Of a stretch of DNA of 64,000 nt, positions 9,523 through 64,000 are shown in pieces. The DNA is from Candidatus Blackburnbacteria bacterium (GTDB lineage Bacteria; Patescibacteriota; Microgenomatia; UBA8517; UBA10165): contig JACPEJ010000001.1 of the NCBI GenBank assembly GCA_016183565.1, forward strand, positions 226,577-290,576. The letters run 5' to 3'. Position 1 is the first letter of the stretch. The number at the start of each line of letters is the position of its first letter. The notes under the pieces were generated by a model. That model saw only the letters and a list, made by a program, of their open reading frames with translations, did not search any database and had not been told where the DNA came from. Both the position numbers and the translations under genes were made by a program.

Positions 9523-9885
9523 ATGTTAATAAAAGCAGAACAAAAATACATAAGGATGAGTCCACGCAAGATAAGGTTAGTGGTAGATTCTGTGCGGGGT
9601 ATTAAGTTGCCTCAGCAGGTTTTGCTTTATCTTGAGCATGTTAACAAGAGGGCGGCAGGAGTGGTCTCGAAGTTAATCAAACAGGCGATTGCGAATGCTA
9701 CCAACAACCTAAGTTTGCCAGCTGATAAGCTCACGATTAAAGAGTTGCAGGTGGGTGGTGGGCCTGTGTATAAAAGAGGACAACCTGTGTCTCGTGGCCG
9801 CTTTCACCCTGTTTTAAAGCGTACTAGCCATGTGAGGATAGTTCTTGAATCTAAAGAGAGAGGAGGGAAAAACGGGAAACGTTAA
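9523..9885 (+). CDS. rplV: 50S ribosomal protein L22
   Basis: IRMSPRKIRLVVDSVRG; position in the cluster. Confidence 0.9.
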   Translation: MLIKAEQKYIRMSPRKIRLVVDSVRGIKLPQQVLLYLEHVNKRAAGVVSKLIKQAIANATNNLSLPADKLTIKELQVGGGPVYKRGQPVSRGRFHPVLKRTSHVRIVLESKERGGKNGKR

Positions 9886-9941
9886 ACGCAAAACGGCAGA
9901 CGAGAAATGTTAAACGTTTCGCGTTTTGCGTATCACATTGT

Positions 9942-11230: not shown

Positions 11231-11532
11231 AAGTTTTTATAGGAAAAGTAAAAAGCGTGAGTTTGACAAAAACTGTAATTGTGGAAGTTGAGCGTTTTCG
11301 TGTTCATCCAATCTACGAGAAACGCACAAGAAGCACAAAGAGATATCCTGTACATGATGAGATAGGTGTAAAAGAGCGCGATGTGGTGGAGTTTAAAGAG
11401 ACAAGGCCTATATCAAAGACCAAGAGGTGGATGATAACACGAGTGTTGGGGAAGAGAAAAGAGGAAGAACGGGAAACGTTAAACGCAAAACGACAGATGG
11501 GAAACAAACGCAAAGTTGCCACTTCGCGGTAA
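11227..11532 (+). CDS. rpsQ: 30S ribosomal protein S17 (C-terminal extension encoded by a repeat element)
   Basis: GKVKSVSLTKTVIVEVERFRVHPIYEKR. Confidence 0.88.
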   Translation: MKVFIGKVKSVSLTKTVIVEVERFRVHPIYEKRTRSTKRYPVHDEIGVKERDVVEFKETRPISKTKRWMITRVLGKRKEEERETLNAKRQMGNKRKVATSR

Positions 11533-25108: not shown

Positions 25109-25137
25109 TTTGAATTCAAAATAGTTTTTTGTTACAA
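25109..25137 (+). promoter_or_regulatory. sigma70-like promoter TTGAAT-17-TACAAT; predicted transcript start ~3 nt before ATG 25147 (near-leaderless)
   Basis: TTGAAT at 25109-25114, TACAAT at 25132-25137. Confidence 0.5.
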
Positions 25138-25146
25138 TCTGGGGAG

Positions 25147-26901
25147 ATGACCATTGAAACCACATCTCAAGACAACCGTGAGGCCAGGCGTCTTAATGCT
25201 GCCATGGACCGTCGGACCACCCCGGCCTCGGCCAAGTTATTAGAGCTGATACATCAACAAAGACATCAAGCAGAAACAGCCTGGCATGAAATGATTAGAC
25301 GGCCTGGCATAAGTTTGGCCCAGCTAATTTATCAAACTGAACCAGTTGTACCGGCTATGGTAGAAAAAATGCGCTCCTTTTCTCAGTCTCTAGCCCAAGC
25401 TAAAGGAGTGAGGCAACCACCAGAGGAGCAACCCCGTCAGCGATGGGCTAAGTACCTCAATGGTTTAAGCAAAGAAGATTATTATTCATTAAAAGTTGGC
25501 GGCATCAAGGGTTTAGGAAGAGAAGGAACATCGCTTTCAGATATTGAAACAATGTCCCTGCCCCTGTCTTTAGAGGATATTAACAGGATTAACCGTATTT
25601 ATCGTCATAATTTGCTGTTTCGTGCTAATAGTCAAGAGACATTTATTGCCCAGTCAGGTCTTGTTTTGGCTGCCCAGCCATGGGCCAGGCCAGATTTAAA
25701 ACAGGCAATCCCTGCTACTATTAGGCCTTTATTTGATCGGTTGACCAACTATTGGGATTACCATACCAACTTAATAGCCAATCCGGTATTTGATACTGGC
25801 GAGGAAGCCAAGCTGGCCACGATGGTTGGTTGGTTAGGTAAAGGTTTTTTTAAAAGTCTGGCCCTGTTTATACCAGCTCGTTTAGGTATTACTCCAGCTT
25901 CAACCATGAAGTTGTTTGAATATCATTCAGCCTTTTCCGGGCTTGATCTAACTTGGAAGATGATCACTGATTTGCTTGGCCCAGAGCTGGTCCAGGCCTA
26001 CCGTCCTGATAATTTGCCACCTGACCTGCAACCATATCAGCAATATGCCCCTGAAGCTGACAAAAAAACCAGTCAGGTTTTGGGTAGATATTATCAAAAT
26101 CAAGCTGCCTCAGAGCTGGTTAGCCACCTTGACAGCTGGCAGAGTTTCTTGAGGCTTGGCCTTTACTGGAAAGCCCTTCGGACAGATATTTTAACTTCAG
26201 GCTCCAACCGGCTGGAGTTTAGATTGCCAGACCACCCAGTCTTTAATGAAGTGATACTGACCTGCCAAAATAAACAGGTCTTGATATTTATTCTCAGTTT
26301 GGCTTTGGATCAGACACATTTAACTTTAGAAATTGATAATCAGGGCCGCCTTTTCGGGTTGCCAGCTGATTTAGTTTGGGAGTCACCATCTGCCGGTCAT
26401 TATCTAATTCAGGATATCCTCAGTCCAATTTTAGAGTGGGCCCGCAACCTTCACCCGCAAATTGAACCAAGCCCACTAGTAGCCACCACTGCTCCAAGTA
26501 AAAAAACCCAGCCAGCTTTAGTCCAAAGCAGTGTTAATCAGGTAGAGGCTGTGCCTCGATCTTCGGTAGTTAAACGCCGTCGTTTGCCTCTACCAGCACC
26601 TTTTCAGGAACCAGACTTACCCTTACCAGTTAGGCCAGTTAGGCAACAGTTGACAGTGATTTACTCCCGGAGTCAGGTTCGTGAATTGTTGGGACCCAAA
26701 ACTCCTGAGAAGGTAGTTACACAGATTATGGGAGCTATTAAACAGCTTGAGTATGGCTCAAGGAAATTAGAGTCAGTTAAAGCACTACCAGGTTGTTATA
26801 AATTTCGCAGTGGTAACTACCGGGTTATAGTTAGACCTGAGGATGGGCAGGTTTACTTTTTAGTGAATATAGGCTATAGGCGGAATATCTATGATTTTTA
26901 G
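25147..26901 (+). CDS. large (~585 aa) protein: unknown N-terminal ~500 aa fused to a C-terminal RelE/ParE-family mRNA-interferase domain
   Basis: C-terminus ...ALPGCYKFRSGNYRVIVRPEDGQVYFLVNIGYRRNIYDF aligns with E. coli RelE ...MPDCYKIKLRSSGYRLVYQVIDEKVVVFVISVGKRERSEVY, including Lys, Arg and Tyr positions; the ORF-track start TTG 25129 lies inside the promoter, so ATG 25147 is preferred. Confidence 0.7.
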   Translation: MTIETTSQDNREARRLNAAMDRRTTPASAKLLELIHQQRHQAETAWHEMIRRPGISLAQLIYQTEPVVPAMVEKMRSFSQSLAQAKGVRQPPEEQPRQRWAKYLNGLSKEDYYSLKVGGIKGLGREGTSLSDIETMSLPLSLEDINRINRIYRHNLLFRANSQETFIAQSGLVLAAQPWARPDLKQAIPATIRPLFDRLTNYWDYHTNLIANPVFDTGEEAKLATMVGWLGKGFFKSLALFIPARLGITPASTMKLFEYHSAFSGLDLTWKMITDLLGPELVQAYRPDNLPPDLQPYQQYAPEADKKTSQVLGRYYQNQAASELVSHLDSWQSFLRLGLYWKALRTDILTSGSNRLEFRLPDHPVFNEVILTCQNKQVLIFILSLALDQTHLTLEIDNQGRLFGLPADLVWESPSAGHYLIQDILSPILEWARNLHPQIEPSPLVATTAPSKKTQPALVQSSVNQVEAVPRSSVVKRRRLPLPAPFQEPDLPLPVRPVRQQLTVIYSRSQVRELLGPKTPEKVVTQIMGAIKQLEYGSRKLESVKALPGCYKFRSGNYRVIVRPEDGQVYFLVNIGYRRNIYDF

Positions 26902-44210: not shown

Positions 44211-45581
44211 ATGGGTTCTTCTGTAAGACGTGTTTTTATAATAGTTATTCTGATTTTGGTGGCTGCTTTTGTAGCACTTCCTGATGAGTTGCCTATTAAT
44301 TTTGGGTATGGGAACTTTAAGGTTAATTATGTCCTCCAAAGACCTCCTGTTAGTTTAAATTATGGTAGTTTTTCTTTCCAGCGTGATTTGGATCTTAAGT
44401 TAGGTCTTGACCTTGCAGGGGGTAGTCATCTTGTTTTTGAGGCGGATGTAACGGGCATTGATGCTAGTGATCAAGATTTGGCGGTAGAGTCGGCAAGAAG
44501 TGCGATCGATCGTAGGATAAATTTATTTGGGGTTTCGGAAAGTACTGTTCAGACTGCGAAAGTTGGAACATCAAGAAGGATTATTGTTGAGTTGCCTGGT
44601 ATTAAAGATGCGCAACAAGCAGTAAGTTTAATTGGTAAAACAGCTCGGTTGGATTTTAGGGAGTTGACTGATACAGTTGAGGCGACACAGGGTGCTGTTT
44701 TTTTGACTCTAGATAATACTAAAACAACAGGATTTACAGGTGCAGATTTTGAGCGAGCTAAACCAGATTTCGATTCTACAACTGGTAAGCCAGTTGTTTC
44801 TTTTGAAATGAAGCAGGATTCAGCAAAGAAGTTTGGTGAGATTACAACAAGGCTACAAGGTAAAAGACTTGCAATTTTTTTGGATGAAACTCCAATCTCT
44901 GCTCCTGTTATTCAAACTCCAATTACGGAGGGGAGGGGTCAAATAACTGGGGAGTTTACGTTGCAAGAAGTGAAGGATTTGTCGAATTTATTGAGTGCTG
45001 GTGCTTTGCCGGTTCCTGTAAAACCTATTGAACAAAGGACTGTTGAGGCAAGTTTAGGTAGAGAATCTATACAAAAAAGTGTAGTTGCTGGGGTTGTTGG
45101 TTTGGGAATGGTTGTTCTTTTTATGGTTCTTAATTATAGAGTACTTGGTTTTCTTGCGAGTGTTGCTCTGTTAATTTATGGCATATTAACTCTTGCGTTA
45201 TATAAACTTATTCCTATTGTTTTAACACTACCTGGTATTGCAGGTTTTATACTTTCTGTTGGCATGGCGGTTGATTCAAATATATTAATTTTTGAGAGAA
45301 TGAAGGAAGAGCTTATGAGTGGTAGGTCATGGCAAAATAGTATGGAATCGGCTTTTGGAAGGGCATGGGATTCTATAAGAGACGCTAATATTGCTACTCT
45401 TTTGACAGCCTTTGTTTTGTTTAATCCGTTGAACTTTAGTTTCTTGCATACCTCTGGTCCTGTACGTGGGTTTGCGTTAACCTTGGCATTGGGGATAGCA
45501 GTAAGTTTGTTCACAGGGGTATTTGTTACAAGGACATTGATGCGGGTTTTTGCAAAGAAAGATATACAGAAAAAAATATGA
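44211..45581 (+). CDS. secD: protein translocase subunit SecD
   Basis: N-terminal TM, periplasmic domain, 5 C-terminal TM helices; followed by secF. Confidence 0.88.
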   Translation: MGSSVRRVFIIVILILVAAFVALPDELPINFGYGNFKVNYVLQRPPVSLNYGSFSFQRDLDLKLGLDLAGGSHLVFEADVTGIDASDQDLAVESARSAIDRRINLFGVSESTVQTAKVGTSRRIIVELPGIKDAQQAVSLIGKTARLDFRELTDTVEATQGAVFLTLDNTKTTGFTGADFERAKPDFDSTTGKPVVSFEMKQDSAKKFGEITTRLQGKRLAIFLDETPISAPVIQTPITEGRGQITGEFTLQEVKDLSNLLSAGALPVPVKPIEQRTVEASLGRESIQKSVVAGVVGLGMVVLFMVLNYRVLGFLASVALLIYGILTLALYKLIPIVLTLPGIAGFILSVGMAVDSNILIFERMKEELMSGRSWQNSMESAFGRAWDSIRDANIATLLTAFVLFNPLNFSFLHTSGPVRGFALTLALGIAVSLFTGVFVTRTLMRVFAKKDIQKKI

Positions 45582-46450
45582 ACTGGATGAAGTTTCGCTG
45601 GTTTTATTTTTTGGTTTCAGGAATTGTGTTGGCTTTTTCTGTATATGCAATAGCTACCTGGGGTTTTCGCCCCTCAATAGATTTTACTGGGGGGAGTGTA
45701 GTGGAATACAGATTTCAGGGTCGTGTTGAAGCATCAAAAGTATCGGAAGATATTGTAGCGCAAGGTTATGAACTAAAGGAAGTTAAGAGTATAAGTGCTA
45801 ATAGTTTAGAACTGAAATTTGTGCCAACCTTTGAGCAAAGGAATGCGGAGGATTTAAGTGCAATTCTTGCTCAATCTTTAAAAGAAAAACCTGAGATTGT
45901 AAGATTTGAGACTGTTGGTCCGGCCTTGTCTACAGAGATTCTTGAAAAAACATATATAGCAATAGCAATTGCGGCAACAGGAATTCTTCTTTGGGTTGCG
46001 TGGCAATTTAAAAGTATTCAGTTCGGGATTTCTGCGATTCTTGCGACGCTACACGATACGATAATTTTGCTTGGTGTGTTTGCAGTACTTGGGCACTACA
46101 AGGGTGTTGAGGTTGATATACTTTTTGTTACAGCAGTTTTAACAACTTTGTCCTTCTCGGTTCACGATACTATTGTTGTCTATGATCGAATCCGAGAGTC
46201 GAAAAGAAGATTTAGTAGTGTTTCTTTTGTAGATCTTTCTAATAAAGCGGTCACAGAGACAATGGGTCGTTCGCTTAACAATTCTTTGACTATTATTTTC
46301 ATGCTTCTGGCGCTTTTTTTGATGGGAGGAGTAACTATAAAATGGTTTGTTGCAGCACTTCTTGTTGGTACAATATCAGGTACTTACTCATCTCCATTTG
46401 TCGCAGTCCCGCTTTTGGTGATGTGGGATTGGATTAGAGGTAGGTTCTAG
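45578..46450 (+). CDS. secF: protein translocase subunit SecF
   Basis: 290 aa, SecF topology; overlaps secD by 4 nt. Confidence 0.88.
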   Translation: MNWMKFRWFYFLVSGIVLAFSVYAIATWGFRPSIDFTGGSVVEYRFQGRVEASKVSEDIVAQGYELKEVKSISANSLELKFVPTFEQRNAEDLSAILAQSLKEKPEIVRFETVGPALSTEILEKTYIAIAIAATGILLWVAWQFKSIQFGISAILATLHDTIILLGVFAVLGHYKGVEVDILFVTAVLTTLSFSVHDTIVVYDRIRESKRRFSSVSFVDLSNKAVTETMGRSLNNSLTIIFMLLALFLMGGVTIKWFVAALLVGTISGTYSSPFVAVPLLVMWDWIRGRF

Positions 46451-46551
46451 TGGAGCTTCATTGGAAATTATTTTACAGTATACAAGCTTTGAATAAGGCT
46501 ACTTGACAAAGGCTCTTGGTTGTAGTAGTGTATATACATTGTATATATTAG

Positions 46552-46866
46552 ATGGCTACCTTTAGTTTGAGGGGTATTGTTGGTTTTGAATGGGATAAAG
46601 GAAACATTTCTCATATAGCAAAGCACAATGTTGCACCAAGAGAGTCTGAAGATGTGTTTTTCGATAAGAATAATGTGTTGGATGAGGATTTGAAACATTC
46701 GGTGGGAGAACAGCGTTTTTTAATCATCGGAAAAACGAAAAGGGGAAGAATTTTATATCAAATATTTACCGTAAGGGGAGGCAAGATTAGAGTTGTCTCG
46801 TCGCGAGATATTAACAAGAAGGAGGTGAGCTTGTATGAAAAAAAAGTTGATAATTCCAAAATTTAA
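46552..46866 (+). CDS. brnT: BrnT-family ribonuclease toxin (DUF497)
   Basis: FEWDKGNISHIAKHNVAPRESEDVF ... RFLIIGKTKRGRILYQIFTVRGGKIRVVSSRDINKKE. Confidence 0.75.
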   Translation: MATFSLRGIVGFEWDKGNISHIAKHNVAPRESEDVFFDKNNVLDEDLKHSVGEQRFLIIGKTKRGRILYQIFTVRGGKIRVVSSRDINKKEVSLYEKKVDNSKI

Positions 46867-47098
46867 GAGTGAGTCGGAAGAATCCAGATTTTGGGCTAAT
46901 CTTGATTTAATGGAATATTTTGAACCTTCTGATTTTAGAAGGGGAGTTGTGTTTCCGCAATTAAAGCGGAGCAAGCGCCTCGTTTCAATTCGCCTTCCTG
47001 ATGAATTAATAGTTAGAGTTAAAGATAAAGCTAGTAAGCTTGAAGTGCCATATCAAAGTCTTATACGTAGGTATATTCAGCAGGGAGTAGCTAGATAA
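46835..47098 (+). CDS. brnA: BrnA-family antitoxin (RHH/CopG-like)
   Basis: SESEESRFWANLDLMEYFE...SIRLPDELIVRVKDKASKLEVPYQSLIRRYI. Confidence 0.7.
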   Translation: MKKKLIIPKFKSESEESRFWANLDLMEYFEPSDFRRGVVFPQLKRSKRLVSIRLPDELIVRVKDKASKLEVPYQSLIRRYIQQGVAR

Positions 47099-47319
47099 AA
47101 GTTCTTTTGTTCAGGGGCAAGTGAGGTTGAAAGGAAACTTGAGCAATAACCCTGCAGTTTAGTTAGTGGTAGGCCCGAGTTCTCAAAACGATCGCAACAC
47201 CTTAAGGGTTAATTTTTAGGTATCATCACCTCCATGGGAATTAGAATGGAGGTGAGTAAAATACCAAAGTATAGAAAGCTGGTTAAGGAGGATAGGATAC
47301 TGATTGCTCAATGTAGAGA

Positions 47320-47430
47320 CAATGGTTTGTTGCAGCACTTCTTGTTGGTACAGTGTCAGGTACTTACTCATCTCCATTTGTCGCAGTCCCGCTTTTGGTG
47401 ATGTGGGAGAAAATTAAGAGGAGGGTTTAG
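47320..47430 (+). pseudogene. duplicated 3'-terminal fragment of secF (~110 nt, 2 mismatches over the first 92 nt)
   Basis: aatggtttgttgcagcacttcttgttggtaca...gtcccgcttttggtgatgtggga also occurs at 46331-46440 as the genuine secF end. Confidence 0.85.
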
Positions 47431-47668
47431 CAAATGTTTTTTAGTGATTTTGTTGCAGTTTATTCAATTTTATACTTTAAGGTAATCTGAACACTACACT
47501 CCTACGTAGGAGTGTAGTGTCTAATACGCTCATACATATGGATATTATTAAAATTATTGGTGTTATGTTTCGAAACATTGGAACTTAAAACTCAGGATTT
47601 AGAACATGGAGTAGGAATATTTGATTGGTCATTGATATCATGATTCGAATCATGATATCAAATATGAT

Positions 47669-47992
47669 TTACATTAACTGGAAACGGATTATTTTCAAGG
47701 GTGTGGTTTTGTTGATGTCGCAGTTATAGTAATGGGAGTAAGTTTCATACATTTTTTTATCGTTTTTGAAGGATTCGTGTCCATCTTTGTCTTCTTTTGT
47801 TAGTTTACCGAAAGTTGTTTGTTTGACTGAAGTGATTTTTGCTTTTGCAAATTCTTTTAGTGTTTCTCTATTGACCAAACTTAGTTTGTCATCTTCTGTT
47901 AGATTTTTGTCGTCGAAGAGCCGCCATGTGGAAGTTTTAGAACCATTAAGGATAATAGGGACTAATTCTGGGCTAAACTTTAGTATTTTCAT
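47669..47992 (-). CDS. ASCH-domain protein
   Basis: IILNGSKTSTWRL...GDKL pattern. Confidence 0.45.
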   Translation of the reverse strand: MKILKFSPELVPIILNGSKTSTWRLFDDKNLTEDDKLSLVNRETLKEFAKAKITSVKQTTFGKLTKEDKDGHESFKNDKKMYETYSHYYNCDINKTTPLKIIRFQLM

Positions 47993-49364
47993 TATTACCA
48001 ATTTCTTTAATACGCTTCAGAAGATAATCTCTGTTGTTTTTGGAGAGGTCTTCTTCAACTTCTGCAAAAAGTTTACTTAAAATTTGACCGATTTTTGGTC
48101 CTGATGGGATGTTTAATGTTTTCATAACATCATTACCGTCAACTTCTAAATCTTTTACAGAGAATGGTTGTTTTTGTACCTCTTCTAATCTCTTTTTGAA
48201 CTTTTCTAATCGCCAAGAAGTTTCGCTTGCTCCGCCACCTAAGCGGTCACCAGTTCGCAAATCTAGCATGTCTTGGAGGTTGTCTTTTCCAACCTTTCTT
48301 ATAAACCGTCTTAGTGCACCATCGGTTTGTCGCTCGTCGACGGTAAACTGGTGATAGCGTATAAGAGTCCATAGTTTATCTTTTTGTTTTTTTGAGAGTC
48401 TTAGGCGATCCGCAATCTCTTTTGCCATACGTGATCCAATTACTTCATGGTTATAAAAAGTGATAATGCCTTTTTCTGTCACCTGTTGTGTTTGTGGTTT
48501 CCCAATATCATGCAAGAGTGTTGCTAAACGGACAAGTGGATCTTTTGATGGACAGTTTTTAAGGGACATAAAAAGATGAGTACCTACATCATAAAGATGG
48601 TGTCTTTTTGGACTTTTCTGTTTAACTCCGAAAGATTTTTCGACTTCTGGTAGGATTTGTGTGAGCAATCCTGAATTTCTAAGCATTACTACCCCCTCGT
48701 AAGGGTAGAGGGATGCGAGGAGTTTTAATAGCTCATCCCGTATTCTTTCTTTTGAGACGAGATTTACTGATTCTCCTTGCATTTTTATTGCTTCGAAAGT
48801 CTTCTCTTCAATGGTGAATCCTAACTCGGAAGCAATTCTTACTCCCCGTATCACGCGAAGGGCATCTTCTCGAAATCTTTCGACAGGGTCGCCGACCGCT
48901 TTTATTAGTTTGTTTTTTAAATCATTCTGTCCGCCATGAGGATCAATTAACTCAAAGGGTAAATTGGATAGTTTACCTTGAGCAAGCGTGGCGCGTCGAA
49001 GGGCCATTGCATTTATTGTAAAATCACGCCTTGATAAGTCTTCTTCAAGACTTTCGCCCCATTCGACTTTGTCAGGGTGACGCTTATCTGTAAACCCAAT
49101 TTCTCGTCGGAAAGTTGTAATTTCGTAGGGCTTGAGGCAGGATTCGTGTGCGATGCCGATAGTACCAAATACGTTGTCGTAAAAGCCGTCGGGAAAAAGT
49201 TTTAAGATTTGGTCAGGTGTTGCGTTTGTTGTGAAGTCCCAGTCATTTACATCACGGTTTGTTAGGATATCTCGGACAGCTCCACCGACTATATAGATTT
49301 GGAACCCCGCTTGTTCGAAAGTATTGATGATGATTTTTACAAATTCTGGAAACTTGGTCGTCAT
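47973..49364 (-). CDS. cca: CCA-adding tRNA nucleotidyltransferase with HD domain
   Basis: GGAVRD..., D-x-D, HD domain LHDIGKP. Confidence 0.88.
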   Translation of the reverse strand: MTTKFPEFVKIIINTFEQAGFQIYIVGGAVRDILTNRDVNDWDFTTNATPDQILKLFPDGFYDNVFGTIGIAHESCLKPYEITTFRREIGFTDKRHPDKVEWGESLEEDLSRRDFTINAMALRRATLAQGKLSNLPFELIDPHGGQNDLKNKLIKAVGDPVERFREDALRVIRGVRIASELGFTIEEKTFEAIKMQGESVNLVSKERIRDELLKLLASLYPYEGVVMLRNSGLLTQILPEVEKSFGVKQKSPKRHHLYDVGTHLFMSLKNCPSKDPLVRLATLLHDIGKPQTQQVTEKGIITFYNHEVIGSRMAKEIADRLRLSKKQKDKLWTLIRYHQFTVDERQTDGALRRFIRKVGKDNLQDMLDLRTGDRLGGGASETSWRLEKFKKRLEEVQKQPFSVKDLEVDGNDVMKTLNIPSGPKIGQILSKLFAEVEEDLSKNNRDYLLKRIKEIGNNENTKV

Positions 49365-57998: not shown

Positions 57999-58008
57999 TT
58001 TTCCTACT

Positions 58009-58038
58009 TGACTTTTTTTACAGAATAACATTATAGTG
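58009..58038 (+). promoter_or_regulatory. sigma70-like promoter TTGACT-18-TATAGT upstream of the giant surface-protein gene
   Basis: seen in sequence. Confidence 0.4.
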
Positions 58039-58060
58039 TTCAGATACTGTTAATTTCTGA

Positions 58061-61000
58061 ATGAAGATTGGAATATATAGTAGAATACTATCTTCAGCGT
58101 TAGTTCTTTCTTTGGTTTTTACACAAGGTGTTTTCCCCTCATTGGTTATTGCTCAAGAGGCAACTCAACCAGCTGAATTATTTAGTGGAATTGACGGCCA
58201 GGAACAGCAAACGCAGTTAACTTTAGAAATTACTCCTACACCATCAATAACTCCTACTGATACCCCAACTCCCACTGCAACCACAACCCCTACCACTACT
58301 CCAGAACCAAACCCTACGCCAACACCATTAAATCCACAAGCGCTATGGACAAATAATAATGATTCATACACAACAGAAATACTAAAATTAGGTGTAACCT
58401 ATAAATTCCCTCTTAACGAAAAAGTCAGTTTAACATTTACCAAACTTCCTACTGAATCTGGCACTGTCACGGTTACAGAACATGATGCGCCTGCCACTAT
58501 CAACAATCCAGGCAGCAAAGATTATGAAATTACTTCAACAATGGAGAATGGTAGTTTCGAATTTGACTTAACTCTACCAACTAATGATCCCAATAAAAAC
58601 GTTCTTTCCTCCCAGGATGGACAAAATTATTCTCCTCTTAATAATGAAAAAATAACATCTTTAGATGCGGTCACTATTAAAGGCATCAATCATCTAACCC
58701 ATTTTTTAGTAGGGGAGTTAAATAATTCTAATGATACTAAACATCCGGTTATTAATGAGTTCTTTTCTAGTGGATCAAACGACTGGATAGAATTATATAA
58801 CCCTAGAGCGGACCCAATAGATTTGTCTGGGTGGAAGTTGGATGATAACGGAGGTACCTCAGCTGTATATACCTTTGGCTCGGTAACTATCCCGGCGGGA
58901 GGGTTTGTCCTACAAGGTGGTACTTTCGGCTTAAACAATGACGGAGATACGGTAAGGCTTATCGACTCCTCAGGCAATACTAGAGACGCTGTTCCATATG
59001 GATCAGAACCTAATGCTTTATTAGCAGCCCCAAGTTCATCCCAATCTGGTAGACGAATAATCAATAGCGGAACTACCTGGGAAATATCATCTAATATTAC
59101 TCAAGGTTTTACTAACGAGAATTCCATTATTTATGTTGATGACAGTTACACAGAAGGCAGCGAATTCGGCACCACTACTTTTCCATTTAACACCATCCAG
59201 GAAGGAGTTAATGCGGTTATATCCGGCGGTACAGTCAATGTGGCGGCGGGAACATACACAGAATCTGTTGTTGTAAATAAAACTTTGACATTGTCTGGGG
59301 TTGGTGCAACCACTGTTATTAGTCCAACAGTTGACCAGGATGGTATTAAAGTTACAGCAAACAATGTGGTAATAAAGGACTTAAAAGTTGTTACGTCTAA
59401 TTCTGGTGTTACTCCTAATATTGCAGTTCGGATTGAGGGAACAAGCGGAGTTGAAATTAGCGGCAATGTGATTGAAACTACCGGCAACAAAGCCATGGGA
59501 ATTTGGATCTGTGGCACTACTTCCGGTTGCTCAACGACCAGCAACCTAACTATAAAAAAGAATACGATTACAATTAATGACTCCGCAACTGGTATTTATG
59601 CCGAAGAAGCCAGTCCTGCGCATGCTGGTTGGACAATTGGGGGGACAAGTACCTCTAACGCCAATACTATTACAGCTAATTTAGGCAATCCTTTAGAGCT
59701 TTATGATGTGTCAGCCTCAGAAGTTAGTTACAATAACCTTACTACAGCTGCGACGGGCGGATCTAATGTTATATGGTCAAGCCAATTATCTGATATCTCC
59801 AACTTGGTGTTTAAAAATAACACAGTTGTCGGCTCCGGAGGTAGTCAGGTTGCTTTCTTGACAGACTTTCTTGTTCTCGGTGACGGTTTGGCGAATACCC
59901 ATGTAAGTATCGTGACAATTTCAGAGAATACTTTTAGTAGTTGGGGTTCAAGAGCGTTAAGAATTGGAGATGGAGCTGGTGTAAACGGAACAACTGTTAC
60001 TGGAGTTACTATTAGTTCAAACACGTTTAATATGACCGCTGACCCGGAAGTTATTGGAGGTACGGCTGGTGGCAGTGCGACCGGAACTGGAAATACATTC
60101 AACGTAAGTGGAACAGCAAAAATCCAAAAAGCCATTGATGCTGCTAGAACCAACGATATAATCAACGTAGCAGTAGGAACATATACCGAGGACTTAACGA
60201 TTGCTTCGGGCAAGACGAATCTTGAACTGTCGGGGACTGGTTCACCAACTATTAAGGGCGTTTCAACAGTCCCCGTTGCGAATTATCCCCAAGCAGTGCC
60301 AAATATAGAAATTTTAGCAAGCGGAGTAAAGCTTCATGGCTTTACTATCGAAGGGCCTGATTATTCTGCCAGTACTTATGCAAGCGGTATGATTGTTGGT
60401 AGCTCAAACGTAGAAATTTACTCAAACGCTTTTAGGGTGCCTACGTACAGTAATGGTAATACTGCTATGAGCAATGCTATTCAAACTTGGCATAAGAATA
60501 ACAAACCAACTGTTGATATTTCAGGTCTGAATATCCATGACAATACTTTTGCTGGTTTGTCTTCTGAAAATGCTGGTTATGAGGGTATTTATCTAAACTT
60601 GGATACAGGCACTAGTGTTGCAACGATTCAAAATAATATTTTTACAGGCAATATTTTTCGTGCTATTACCACAGAAAGATCCAAGACTACTATTACTGGC
60701 AACACAATAACCAACAATCTTCCTGCAAGTGGTGGTAGTTATACGGGTACTGGTGGGTGGCAAGGTATAAATATAGGTGGTGCAAATGACTTTGGGGCGG
60801 TGACAGACATTTTGGTTTCTGCTAACACAATAACTGGGTCTAGTGAAGACAGAGGTTTTTCCTATGGTGTGAAACTAGGATTTAACTCGGTAAATGCGTT
60901 TAGTGGAGTTTCGGTGACAAACAACACAATACACAGAGCTGGTATTGCAGGAGTTCGGGTAATGCACACTGCAAACGGGATTTTGGCGAACACCAACGAT

Positions 61001-64000
61001 TTGTCTGATAATGTTTTGGGTGCAAAAAATGAAGATGCTACAAATATTCTTAATGCAATTAACAACTGGTGGGGAGTTGCGAGTCCGAGTTGGGCAAGTA
61101 CTGTTTTTGGGCTTGTCAGTTATGATCCTTGGTGGATGGATGCTAATAAAACGCTTCCATCAACATTTATTAACACCTTCAATACCATCCATGACGACCT
61201 TGTTGACCAAGATATAGAAAATAATATCGATACTTGTGGCACTCATCCAAATTCCTGCTCTGGGTTATATTTTAAAAAGGTGGTTAACGGAATCTCCCTG
61301 GGGAAACTGTTCTTTACCAATACGCTTGATTTAACCAGCAATGAAACAACAACATTTCTACAAAATCTTGGTAACAAACTTGAACAAGGCAGTGGTAGAA
61401 TTGCCTTTGATGCCAGAGAGTCATCATTATTTTCTGCCACCGGCGCCACTCTGGAAATGTATAACTTGCCTGTTGTTACCCAGTCAAACCTGGTTGTTAG
61501 AAATGATACTGGAACAATACTTGACCAGACAGGACTAATCAGTAATTTTAGCTATAGTACTGGACCAAATGCAGACGGAGACACCAATATTGTTTCTTTC
61601 AATGCTGCCCACTTCACGCAATTTGATATTGATACCACAAAACCGACAACTTTGGATAATGTTGATGGCGCATGGCACAACACAACTCAAACTATCACAT
61701 TAACATGCATCGATAATCTGTCCGGTTGTGACAAAACCTATTACACCACAGACGGAAGCATACCCACCACCAGTTCTTCCCAAGGCAATTCTGTTGTATT
61801 AGCTACGGACGGTACTTATACTATTAAATATTTCTCAGTTGATAAAGCTGGAAACGCAGAAGAGGTAAAAACCTCTGCCAACCAGATAAGAATTGACAAG
61901 ACCAATCCCGATGCTCCAATTGTTACTTCTATAGCAACTGATAATAAAATAAACAATGCAGAAAAATCAGCTATTGTGGTTACGGGAACTGCTGAGGCCA
62001 ACTCTTTGGTTAGCGTCACTTTAAGTGATGGCGCTAACAGTGTTACTAATACTCAACAATTAACCAATGGCGCTGCTAATTTTTCTGTTACTCTTAATGG
62101 GGCTAATGCTTTGCCAGCTGGTTTAACTGATGGTACTATTACTCCTTCTGTCACAGCCAAAGATGCTGCTAATAATGTTAGTAATCCTGCCACTACTCCC
62201 ATAGCTATTCTAGATACTGCTTCTCCTTTAGCGCCAAATATTACTCTACTTGATCCAATCAATAATTCTAATAAAACCGCAGTCACTATCACAGGCACAG
62301 GAGAAGCAAATGCAGCTATCAACTACACAATTACTGACAGCACTAACACAATCACTGGCACTTCTACTGTTAATAATGAAGGTGTAATTAATATCACCGG
62401 TATTAATGTATCAACGCTTATTGACGGAACACTTACCGCTAGTGTTACTATAATTGATACGGCAGGAAATATTAGCACTACTGGTGCTGATAGCGCTGCT
62501 AAAGACGCTGTTATTCCCAGTTTGTCCTCTGTAGGCCTATCTTCCAGTAATTCCAACAACGCCGCAGCAAAAGTAGGTGATACTGCTACTCTCACTTTTG
62601 TCTCTTCTGAATCTATTCAAGCGCCTACGGTGACAATTGCTGGTCATACCGTTACAGCTACTAATACTACTGGTAATACTTGGACTGCTATCTATACTCT
62701 GACACCAACGGACACAGAAGGGGTAGTTATTTTAACTATTGGGTTTGTTGACATAGTAGGAAATGCAGGAAATACAGTCAATGCCACGACAAATAACTCT
62801 TCTGTATTGTTTGATAAAACTGCTCCTTCTCAAATAGTAGCCAATCCGATTGCTGGATCTTATTCTTCAGCTCAAACTATTAGTTTTACCAGTAGCGGTA
62901 GTTCTGTCATTATGTATAGCACCACACAAACATTAAGTGGGTGTGCTTTTGGTAATGTTTATTCCTCACCTATTACCATCTCCTCGTCTACGAATCTTTT
63001 CACAATTTCGTGTGATGACGCTGGTAATAGCAGTAAGGCTGATTTTAGCTATACTATTGGTAACACTAATTTACAGCCGCCTTCAGAGAATCTTGGCCAG
63101 GTTTCCACTCCTGCCACTGTTATGTTAAATAATAATGCCAGTTTAGATGTAAGTGGTGGTCGGAATATAGCGGTAGGAGGGATTATAAAAGTCGATGGGG
63201 TGGATAAATCCCTGAGCAGTTTTTCTAGTAATGATCTGAGTAATAAAGATTTGACTGTTCCTCAATCGGTAGGTGGGCAATTAATTACTATTAATCAAGC
63301 TGTGAAGCTTGAGTCGACTTCTGATATTAGTTTGGCTAATGCTGATTTGACAAATGTTAATGTTTCTATTCCGAACAATACTACGGTTTTAGCGCCAACT
63401 GGGTGGGATGGTAGGATTCAACCGCCTAAGGCTGTTGGGGGTTCTGGTAGTGCACCAACGGGGTTTTCTTTGGGCAATACAGTTATTGAGGTTGGGTCAG
63501 CTGATACAGTACTGCTTTTTGACAAACCCGTTGTTGTAACTCTAAGCGGGGTTACGGGGGATGTGGGCTACAAAGCTGCAGGATCGACGACTTGGCACAA
63601 GATAGATACGATTTGTAATAGTTACGATAGTCCAACGAATGTTGTGTTTCCTGGAGAGTGTCGTGTTTCGAATGGCACGGACACGCGGATATACACTTAT
63701 CACTTCACGACTTTTGGTTCGTTGGATGTTGCTCCTGTGGTTTCTGGTGAAGGTTCTGTTGGGGGAGTAAGTGGTTTGTCAGCAAGTGGGGCCCCGGTTT
63801 GCGTGGACACTAAGCCTTCGAGTGCTCCTAAGCTTCTTTCAGCACAAATCACAGGTTTTAATGAGGTTACTTTAACATGGTCTCCTGCTTCGGATCCTGT
63901 TACATATTATTTAGTGGCCTATGGAACGAAATCGGGAGAGCTTGTTTATGGGAATCCGGATGTGGGAGGTAGGGGTACGACGAGTTTTACAGTTGAAGGA
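58061..64000 (+). CDS. giant secreted surface protein (>1980 aa; 3' end beyond the window): signal peptide, Thr/Pro linker, lamin-tail domain, parallel beta-helix repeats, Big/chitobiase-C-like Ig domains, FN3
   Basis: open frame 2 from ATG 58061 to the window end, not listed in the ORF track; LTD motif INEFFSSGSNDWIELYNPRADPIDLSGWKLDD; beta-helix repeats NVAAGTYTESVVVNKTLTLSG; YTTDGSIPT...YTIKYFSVDKAGNAE. Confidence 0.8.
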   Translation, partial: MKIGIYSRILSSALVLSLVFTQGVFPSLVIAQEATQPAELFSGIDGQEQQTQLTLEITPTPSITPTDTPTPTATTTPTTTPEPNPTPTPLNPQALWTNNNDSYTTEILKLGVTYKFPLNEKVSLTFTKLPTESGTVTVTEHDAPATINNPGSKDYEITSTMENGSFEFDLTLPTNDPNKNVLSSQDGQNYSPLNNEKITSLDAVTIKGINHLTHFLVGELNNSNDTKHPVINEFFSSGSNDWIELYNPRADPIDLSGWKLDDNGGTSAVYTFGSVTIPAGGFVLQGGTFGLNNDGDTVRLIDSSGNTRDAVPYGSEPNALLAAPSSSQSGRRIINSGTTWEISSNITQGFTNENSIIYVDDSYTEGSEFGTTTFPFNTIQEGVNAVISGGTVNVAAGTYTESVVVNKTLTLSGVGATTVISPTVDQDGIKVTANNVVIKDLKVVTSNSGVTPNIAVRIEGTSGVEISGNVIETTGNKAMGIWICGTTSGCSTTSNLTIKKNTITINDSATGIYAEEASPAHAGWTIGGTSTSNANTITANLGNPLELYDVSASEVSYNNLTTAATGGSNVIWSSQLSDISNLVFKNNTVVGSGGSQVAFLTDFLVLGDGLANTHVSIVTISENTFSSWGSRALRIGDGAGVNGTTVTGVTISSNTFNMTADPEVIGGTAGGSATGTGNTFNVSGTAKIQKAIDAARTNDIINVAVGTYTEDLTIASGKTNLELSGTGSPTIKGVSTVPVANYPQAVPNIEILASGVKLHGFTIEGPDYSASTYASGMIVGSSNVEIYSNAFRVPTYSNGNTAMSNAIQTWHKNNKPTVDISGLNIHDNTFAGLSSENAGYEGIYLNLDTGTSVATIQNNIFTGNIFRAITTERSKTTITGNTITNNLPASGGSYTGTGGWQGINIGGANDFGAVTDILVSANTITGSSEDRGFSYGVKLGFNSVNAFSGVSVTNNTIHRAGIAGVRVMHTANGILANTNDLSDNVLGAKNEDATNILNAINNWWGVASPSWASTVFGLVSYDPWWMDANKTLPSTFINTFNTIHDDLVDQDIENNIDTCGTHPNSCSGLYFKKVVNGISLGKLFFTNTLDLTSNETTTFLQNLGNKLEQGSGRIAFDARESSLFSATGATLEMYNLPVVTQSNLVVRNDTGTILDQTGLISNFSYSTGPNADGDTNIVSFNAAHFTQFDIDTTKPTTLDNVDGAWHNTTQTITLTCIDNLSGCDKTYYTTDGSIPTTSSSQGNSVVLATDGTYTIKYFSVDKAGNAEEVKTSANQIRIDKTNPDAPIVTSIATDNKINNAEKSAIVVTGTAEANSLVSVTLSDGANSVTNTQQLTNGAANFSVTLNGANALPAGLTDGTITPSVTAKDAANNVSNPATTPIAILDTASPLAPNITLLDPINNSNKTAVTITGTGEANAAINYTITDSTNTITGTSTVNNEGVINITGINVSTLIDGTLTASVTIIDTAGNISTTGADSAAKDAVIPSLSSVGLSSSNSNNAAAKVGDTATLTFVSSESIQAPTVTIAGHTVTATNTTGNTWTAIYTLTPTDTEGVVILTIGFVDIVGNAGNTVNATTNNSSVLFDKTAPSQIVANPIAGSYSSAQTISFTSSGSSVIMYSTTQTLSGCAFGNVYSSPITISSSTNLFTISCDDAGNSSKADFSYTIGNTNLQPPSENLGQVSTPATVMLNNNASLDVSGGRNIAVGGIIKVDGVDKSLSSFSSNDLSNKDLTVPQSVGGQLITINQAVKLESTSDISLANADLTNVNVSIPNNTTVLAPTGWDGRIQPPKAVGGSGSAPTGFSLGNTVIEVGSADTVLLFDKPVVVTLSGVTGDVGYKAAGSTTWHKIDTICNSYDSPTNVVFPGECRVSNGTDTRIYTYHFTTFGSLDVAPVVSGEGSVGGVSGLSASGAPVCVDTKPSSAPKLLSAQITGFNEVTLTWSPASDPVTYYLVAYGTKSGELVYGNPDVGGRGTTSFTVEG

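Follow-up and report, generated by a model that had tools for sequence, protein, structure and literature searches.

How does a toxin-antitoxin operon come to lie between two copies of the end of secF, and by what means did it arrive there? The locus belongs to Candidatus Blackburnbacteria (Bacteria; Patescibacteriota; Microgenomatia; UBA8517; UBA10165) and lies in a stretch of 64,000 nt, hereafter the window, of GenBank assembly GCA_016183565.1 (contig JACPEJ010000001.1, positions 226,577 to 290,576, forward strand). Within it, secF is followed by a brnT-brnA pair and then by a second, orphan secF end. An earlier inspection of the DNA letters, hereafter the sequence-only reading, had taken the locus for a small mobile cassette that targets the secF 3' end. 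The footprint of an insertion is borne out by our analysis; a dedicated integrative element is not. The explanation we favour, at roughly an even chance of being right, is that host recombination, and not a dedicated integrase, took up a foreign segment of about 0.84 kb at the 3' end of secF.

Anatomy of the secF repeat

As now read, secF occupies positions 45578..46450 on the + strand and encodes 290 aa (PF02355, SecD_SecF_C, E 3.6e-45). Its product matches, at 100% identity, an NCBI protein encoded on a 686-kb contig of a metagenome-assembled genome of Ca. Blackburnbacteria (Microgenomates/Patescibacteria). The end of the gene recurs downstream in the following form.

46341..46428, + strand: direct-repeat core, copy 1, coding for the segment of the last transmembrane helix, WFVAALLVGTISGTYSSPFVAVPLLVMW
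46429..46482, + strand: diverged arm, copy 1, with secF tail 1 (DWIRGRF), TAG at 46448-46450, and 32 nt more
47321..47408, + strand: direct-repeat core, copy 2 (orphan), whose first 6-7 nt, AATGGT(T), also fit a transposase frame
47409..47462, + strand: diverged arm, copy 2, with secF tail 2 (EKIKRRV), TAG at 47428-47430, and 32 nt more

The two cores match at 86 of 88 nt and their starts lie 980 nt apart. The repeat noticed in the sequence-only reading thus exists, with these values in place of 90 of 92 nt and a spacing of about 880 nt, and it does bracket brnT and brnA, both of which give Pfam matches between the copies. The two core mismatches fall within a single codon (ATA in copy 1, GTG in copy 2; Ile/Val). 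The left edge of the repeat is abrupt: the sequences upstream of the two copies are unrelated and match at 11 of 60 nt, which is background. To the right of the core the copies stay in register for 54 nt more (46429-46482 and 47409-47462), of which 30 are identical (56%); 54-mers drawn from the window give a background of 14.8 +/- 3.3, a count of 30 being attained with an empirical p of about 1e-4. The full repeat therefore measures 142 nt, 88 nt at 98% followed by 54 nt at 56%, and carries a TAG in register in both copies. Read in the secF frame, copy 2 translates to WFVAALLVGTVSGTYSSPFVAVPLLVMWEKIKRRV and a stop. The base composition of the insert is that of its flanks.

The repeat is more than a chance match, because the 64-kb window contains one other local direct repeat of at least 28 nt, none of 213 control segments (described below) is flanked in this way, and an independent Logan assembly seen in four samples, L001, reproduces both inner junctions. 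Over the 88-nt core segment, relatives at the level of genus or family are identical at 52-68 positions. Since they share only 59-77% of the DNA there, the two cores would both derive from one lineage; the two tails differ as much as tails do between genera.

Could the arrangement have been produced by the assembly, a cassette-free chromosome carrying tail 2 having been threaded together with a circular or variant molecule? The assembly graph of an integrated cassette shares its topology with that of an empty site plus a circle, and the contig of L001 breaks exactly within the repeats, as such an artefact of assembly or population would allow. The phase of the two variants speaks for integration, with ATA linked to the secF body and tail 1, and GTG linked to the insert's transposase stump (see below) and tail 2. 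Given also that a sequencing read exceeds the 88-nt repeat in length and that L001 confirms both inner junctions in its four samples, we consider an artefact very improbable.

The right joint of the insert

The insert ends, on its right side, in the remains of an insertion sequence (IS).

47174..47326, + strand: left-end stump of an IS30-family element, with terminal repeat, hairpin and transposase codons 1 to about 31

A putative terminal repeat, AGTTCTCAAAACGATCGCAAC, is found at 47178-47198 and occurs once in the window. It is followed by a conserved hairpin (47226-47255; fold z = -2.8) that sequesters the Shine-Dalgarno sequence, and by the transposase start codon, ATG at 47234. The gene breaks off at codon 31 or so, precisely where repeat copy 2 begins. 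In a search of 1.84 billion proteins (E 6e-6 to 6e-5), the fragment of 31 aa, MGIRMEVSKIPKYRKLVKEDRILIAQCRDNG, matches the N-termini of P0228, P0230, P0231 and P0232 with 79-85% identity; in P0229 (49 aa) the match is internal, at 88% identity. These proteins, or the open reading frames (ORFs) that continue them, match NF033563 (IS30 transposase) and PF13936 (HTH_38). At the DNA level, homology to the IS copies L111 and L112 begins near 47174. The stump had been overlooked in the sequence-only reading, and an assignment of its ORF to an XRE-type regulator, based on a weak tblastx match to L076, was superseded by the IS30 match. The two IS copies (L111 349-1367 and L112 1047-1869), which are the closest of the IS30 family, are each split in two ORFs, either by a frameshift or as pseudogenes, and that of L112 directly follows an rve-domain (IS481/IS3-like) transposase gene.

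At the break, the motif AATGGT(T) fits both the transposase frame, in which it encodes Asn-Gly, and the start of the secF core; the N-termini of the family read ...AQW(K/R)N.G(F/Y)S and that of the window ...AQCRDNG. Because the same 6-7 nt fit both sequences near codon 31, the right boundary is, as read from its sequence, a microhomology joint inside the transposase gene rather than the end of a mobile element. An element of the IS30 type is bounded by two terminal inverted repeats, encodes an intact DDE transposase and makes a target duplication of 2-3 bp. At the secF locus there is a left terminal repeat only, the transposase ends at about codon 31 and the duplication measures 88-142 nt, so that the locus qualifies neither as an IS30 element nor as a composite transposon. 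A deletion adjacent to an IS30 copy was likewise discarded as the source of the right joint, since the break lies inside the transposase gene and not at the IS terminus.

The truncation of the IS, the abruptness of the left repeat edge and the microhomology of 6-7 nt do look like a deletion endpoint, and the locus may be what is left of a larger duplication. In such a course of events a plasmid-like circle bearing a long piece of secF, brnTA and a full IS30 element would have entered by a single homologous crossover, for which RecA is available. The transposase gene and the second secF copy would afterwards have been joined at AATGGT(T) by a deletion that left only the last 110 nt of that copy. 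This Campbell-type scheme is a close variant of capture by host recombination. It needs two events, and it leaves near-identical cores with differing tails unexplained unless the donor was conspecific; neither the remainder of the IS nor any plasmid gene has left a trace. We regard it as distinctly unlikely.

Two secF tails and the resident end

Which of the two secF ends is the original one? The tail in use ends in ...LLVMW-DWIRGRF, its last seven codons and stop (46427-46450) lying beyond the identical core, and the orphan in ...LLVMW-EKIKRRV. Both resemble genuine SecF tails (60 homologues compared): the IRG motif of tail 1 is common to SecF homologues, including P0011, P0012 and P0016, and tail 2 resembles SecF tails such as WEEIKNRFKRN of P0042. 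A choice of the native tail by comparison with 49 SecF homologues was abandoned, as both tails are within the range of the family. The surroundings of the orphan include two genes that converge with secF.

47669-48001, - strand: ASCH-domain gene (Pfam match), convergent with secF
47973-49364, - strand: gene for the CCA-adding enzyme (Pfam match), convergent with secF

At 47491..47520 (+ strand), 60 nt past the orphan stop, lies a perfect palindrome of 30 nt that forms a 13-bp RNA hairpin with no U-tract. The fold of 47431-47530 has z = -3.1; over the 100 nt that follow the stop now in use, z is -0.2, no better than for shuffled sequence. A second perfect palindrome of 30 nt, also without spacer, is at 47632-47661, and the interval of 240 nt that separates the orphan secF end from the ASCH gene contains both. 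Palindromes with arms of at least 12 nt number four in the 64 kb, the other two being classical terminators. The hairpin at 47491-47520 is probably the original 3' stabiliser or putative terminator of secF, and the two palindromes are probably the native 3' hairpins of secF and of the ASCH gene. Because this hairpin follows the orphan, and then the ASCH and CCA genes in the same order as in the relatives L003 and L004, we infer that tail 2 is the resident, displaced secF end and that tail 1 came in with the insert. The replacement of the secF end and the displacement of the original, as proposed in the sequence-only reading, are supported by these data. Drift in place was rejected as the source of the divergence between the tails: the insert is absent in all relatives, yet the tails differ to the degree seen between genera.

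The secF locus in relatives

We examined 16 loci from other Microgenomates/Patescibacteria, whose SecF proteins are 39-67% identical to that of the window. The order secD-secF followed by convergent genes for the CCA-adding enzyme and recJ is kept in 13 of the 16; recJ was not detected in L013. Neither brnTA nor a second secF end is found at any of the 16 loci. Thus the duplicated fragment is missing where brnTA is missing, and the observation that would have separated the repeat from the insertion, relatives with the fragment and without the cassette, is not made among these genomes. Three of them (L002, L010 and L014) have the nearly empty site that the sequence-only reading had suggested looking for, with only about 40-80 nt between secF and the CCA gene; they are related at the level of genus or family only. 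In nearly every other relative this gap holds a different small gene, among them a NUDIX hydrolase, a nuclease, an ASCH gene and an ORF of 100 aa, and in L013 it holds a Zn-ribbon protein, a Phd/RelE-type toxin-antitoxin pair and an MBL-fold hydrolase. Since almost every genome has a different small gene there, the convergent gap between secF and the CCA gene (46450-47973 in the window) is a variable spot.

The brnT-brnA unit

The cargo of the insert comprises the following features.

46488..47131, + strand: brnTA unit shared with locus L018, about 645 nt, with promoter, putative operator, brnT, brnA and 33 nt beyond
46503..46547, + strand: promoter-like region, -35 TTGACA at 46503-46508 and -10 TAGTGT at 46526-46531
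46552..46866, + strand: brnT, intact toxin gene, 104 aa (PF04365, E 2.6e-18)
46835..47098, + strand: brnA, antitoxin gene of the CopG/ribbon-helix-helix (RHH) type, 87 aa (PF12441, E 6.8e-22)

The toxin gene comes first, the antitoxin gene follows in the same orientation, and the two overlap by 32 nt. BrnT scores 66.5 bits against PF04365 (cut-off 34.5) and keeps every residue that is invariant across its 33 closest homologues; its homologues with 50-81% identity fall into 107 clusters, of which Patescibacteria account for nearly all. BrnA also matches NF047399 (BrnA_antitoxin_add) with E 7.7e-8, below the curated cut-off of NCBI. Judged by domains, gene order and overlap, the locus is a BrnT/BrnA type II toxin-antitoxin system. 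A scan for consensus promoters did not list the promoter at 46503-46531. Its -10 element is overlapped by a perfect 8+8 palindrome, TATATACA-t-TGTATATA (46531-46547), which is probably the operator bound by BrnA, and the columns of promoter and palindrome are invariant in five independent cassettes.

The closest relative of the unit is at L018, with 81% identity for BrnT and 94% for BrnA. DNA homology to it is confined to 46488-47131 of the window, and its two ends are aligned by blastn (46488-46550 with L018 894-956, and 47099-47131 with L018 1505-1537). At L018 the gene upstream of the unit is an unrelated one, and the flanking repeat, a perfect one of 20 nt, is unlike the secF core. Viral contigs, when scanned, gave only relatives of BrnT at 45% identity or less, and a phage or plasmid was on this ground set aside as the vehicle.

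Footprints around brnTA at other loci

Is the secF insert a singular accident? Among 61 dereplicated brnTA loci, the 43 with at least 350 nt on both sides were scored for close flanking direct repeats, defined as repeats that end within 150 nt upstream of brnT and restart within 300 nt after brnA. Such repeats flank 9 of the 43 loci, as against none of 213 random control segments of 543 nt. Their sequence differs at every locus, and neither shared terminal inverted repeats nor a shared att motif was found at the insert ends across 12 loci. The sequence-only reading had suggested a search for the same repeat-flanked cassette elsewhere; comparable repeats are what this search returned, and no other brnTA locus lies beside a secF fragment.

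The footprint takes several forms. At L057 a NUDIX gene ends in ...TPWFLEDWKLINP and a stop, and an orphan end, ...TSWFLEDWKLP and a stop, follows the insert. At L037 (3740-6200, the same locus as L038) three cassettes stand in series, namely brnTA, an ORF of 192 aa and an RHH-PIN pair, and each is preceded by a diverged end of about 30 codons from the zinc finger (zf-FPG) of an Fpg-type gene, with its own stop; no full-length fpg gene was found near the array. The 50-kb contig of L037 carries a second brnTA 7.5 kb away. At L023 (4365-5732, the same as L030 and L114) a perfect intergenic direct repeat of 137 nt upstream of yebC brackets an insert of 1094 nt with a truncated IS481/IS3-like HTH ORF and brnTA; L116 and L117, with 82% YebC identity to L023, have the homologous intergenic region once. 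Not every flanking repeat can be taken for a footprint, since those of the L042 type are promoters of paralogous neighbouring genes and that of L089 is of low complexity. The footprint nevertheless recurs around related cassettes, and insertion of this kind is an ordinary kind of event.

Search for an integrase and its sites

No integrase, transposase or recombinase was found among the ORFs of at least 140 aa scanned between 24.5 and 57.6 kb, as the sequence-only reading had noted for integrases, and the content of the insert is limited to brnT, brnA and the 31-codon IS30 stump. A pattern of the pdif/dif type with up to 3 mismatches gave no dif-like site in the window, though the dif sites of Patescibacteria may diverge strongly. 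No RYYYAAC...GTTRRRY pair, as expected of attC, is present in 46300-47500, and no integron integrase was found. A structured RNA or a tRNA as the target was discarded: Rfam gave no match, either for the region or for the window as a whole, and the part from 38 to 56 kb has no tRNA.

We weighed these results against a site-specific integrative element that has since decayed, or its cis-mobilisable remnant, in which an attP carrying a replacement secF end recombined at the secF 3' end and the integrase was later lost or is encoded elsewhere. The crossover made by the integrase would then be at the left edge of the repeat. An integrative element with a replacement 3' end is the interpretation of the sequence-only reading. 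Direct repeats around a cargo, here 142 nt long, together with a replacement and an orphan end that give two in-frame tails, form the classical attL/attR picture. The same picture is seen at the end of the NUDIX gene of L057, the three serial orphan zf-FPG ends of L037 are like tandem accretion at one site, and the polarity of an identical core followed by a diverged arm suits a fixed crossover point. Two further marks of an integrative element, an integrase gene inside and related elements at the same target, are lacking. Related brnTA units lie at different targets, within unrelated repeats and with variable insert ends, and the right boundary is a microhomology within an IS30 transposase gene that has been cut short. 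With its 88 nt, the core at 98% beside an arm at 56% far exceeds the core length of a recombinase, and a single crossover between a diverged attP and attB cannot yield this pairing of core and tail. We therefore think a dedicated integrase unlikely, because none was found in the insert or among the ORFs scanned, because the right joint lies inside a transposase gene and related units occupy unrelated sites, and because dif-like and attC-like sites were not detected and near-identical cores stand beside tails that differ at genus level. The integrative element as a whole is accordingly an explanation we think unlikely, if a serious one.

A proposed route by host recombination

How could host recombination have built the locus? 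In the capture that we propose, the incoming fragment would have consisted of the secF tail of another lineage, a brnT-brnA operon and the start of an adjacent IS30-family element. Its left joint would be homologous, inside the segment for the last transmembrane helix and at the boundary of core and tail, with resident sequence to the left; to the right of it, secF would end in the imported tail, DWIRGRF and its stop. The right joint would be illegitimate, codon 31 or so of the transposase being fused to codon 255 of secF through the 6-7 nt AATGGT(T). As this joint would lie 88 nt upstream of the left one in resident coordinates, 88 nt would be duplicated on the two sides of the insert, and both cores would be resident sequence. 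The resident end, EKIKRRV and its stop, would have been pushed 980 nt downstream together with its hairpin, to survive as the orphan. A duplication of this kind would need a circularised fragment, a fragment whose two ends paired with sister chromosomes, or ends-in gap repair. RecA, RecX and RecJ, as host recombination machinery, are encoded in the window. secF stays intact, and brnTA keeps its own promoter and putative operator.

With repeats that match at 86 of 88 nt on its two sides, the insert should be easily deleted. Cells that lost it would be selected against through toxin-antitoxin addiction; such a stabilising role, suggested by the known behaviour of type II toxin-antitoxin systems, would explain why the repeat-flanked inserts that persist often carry brnTA.

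The anatomy resembles homology-facilitated illegitimate recombination, which was originally described in Acinetobacter and pneumococcus and which usually deletes or replaces recipient DNA. The process is named, in connection with natural transformation, in PMC6382021. The secF insert has one homologous end, in secF, one microhomology end, at AATGGT(T), and unrelated DNA between them, with a tail that would be foreign. Unlike the outcome of that process it duplicates 88 nt of recipient DNA, its apparent anchor is short, and transformation would be invoked by analogy only.

Several points weigh against capture by host recombination. The duplication calls for an assumption beyond the usual course of homology-facilitated illegitimate recombination. 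The assignment of the resident tail rests on indirect arguments, and the two mismatches of the core, ATA and GTG, sit in a single codon without an explanation. Site-specific integration with a replacement 3' end would likewise be expected to give an identical core followed by an arm that diverges on the cassette side, and the paralogue promoters of the L042 type are flanking repeats of another origin. Finally, no strain-level relative was found: in a set of 5.8 billion proteins the SecF next in similarity has 69% identity, a scan of JGI metagenomes with an exact 40-nt piece of the core gave 0 matches, and a look-up of the exact SecF gave no record. For want of such a relative, a true empty site and a donor are both lacking.

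Comparison with known systems

In E. coli, prophage e14 and phage 21 integrate at icd, bringing in an alternative 3' end; they have their own integrase, defined ends and the same target. Like them, the secF insert brings an alternative end and leaves the displaced original as a pseudo-end in direct repeat. Unlike them it has no integrase, its right end is inside an IS30 transposase gene, and related cassettes lie at unrelated sites. The cis-mobilisable elements (CIMEs) of streptococci are att-flanked remnants without an integrase, whose att sites are recognised by the integrase of a related element. The secF insert shares with them a small, repeat-flanked cargo devoid of a recombinase, and differs in having no evident att site or partner element. 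Toxin-antitoxin cassettes of chromosomal integrons are small and separated by repeats, and are thought to stabilise the array by addiction. The array of L037 is superficially like them, whereas no attC or integron integrase was found and the repeats are fragments of neighbouring genes.

The Acinetobacter plasmid dif modules, several of which carry toxin-antitoxin pairs including brnT/brnA (PMC6449649, PMC13141974, PMC7530245), come close in another respect: there, too, BrnTA is a discrete, shuffled module without an integrase between short repeats. Those modules are moved by Xer at 28-bp XerC/XerD sites, whereas the repeats of the secF insert are target sequence specific to the locus. With the BrnT/BrnA system of Brucella abortus (PF04365, PF12441) the pair in the window shares the domains, the toxin gene in first place, the overlap and a palindrome in the promoter; it belongs to a distant subfamily of Patescibacteria, known here from its sequence. 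BrnTA as a shuffled module is thus already known from Acinetobacter. The present locus does not answer to the definition of an integrase-bearing island, of an IS30 transposon, of a dif module or of an integron cassette.

Other features of the window

The other local direct repeat of at least 28 nt in the window is within a ribosomal-protein operon: 42 nt, 90% identical, recur at 9866-9907 and 11463-11504, at the 3' ends of rplV (L22) and rpsQ (S17). After each copy come a segment that is complementary to it in part and the same ...CGTATCAC, and the repeat gives both proteins tails rich in Lys and Arg; it looks like a small repeated hairpin element. Beside recA, an ORF of 590 aa (25129-26901) matches the ParE toxin domain PF05016 with its last 70 residues or so (E 5e-5); its large N-terminal part is without a Pfam match, and it may be a multidomain protein of the ParE/RelE type. 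An ORF of 68 aa of the MazE/AbrB type (PF04014; 44003-44209) lies between the gene for an HTH regulator and secD, and as called overlaps both. It is present in L002 and L006 and was not detected in the other relatives, and no toxin gene was seen adjacent to it. From about 58000 to 64000 no closed ORF of at least 140 aa is listed, only ORFs that look antisense, and this part is probably occupied by a very long gene that runs off the end of the window.

Implications

The secF locus is a well-preserved case of an essential gene that survived insertion into its coding end by means of a substitute tail, and the joints of the insert can be read almost to the nucleotide. Moreover, repeats specific to the locus, or orphan ends, stand at about a fifth of the independent brnTA loci of Patescibacteria that were examined, with no recombinase in sight. 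One may ask whether brnTA in these bacteria constitutes a class of cassette with neither integrase nor terminal repeats, spread purely by host recombination, making target duplications of 15-142 nt that are specific to each locus and often consist of orphan ends of neighbouring genes, and kept in place by addiction. We put this forward tentatively and consider it rather doubtful. If it were true, the capture of brnTA would exemplify a general route by which tiny genomes poor in mobile elements acquire accessory genes. Should the recurrence of such repeats around brnTA hold up, it would provide a testable account of how toxin-antitoxin systems move and persist in bacteria of the candidate phyla radiation, whose genomes are small and have few recognisable mobile elements, as well as a definite instance of structurally unstable insertions being stabilised by addiction modules.

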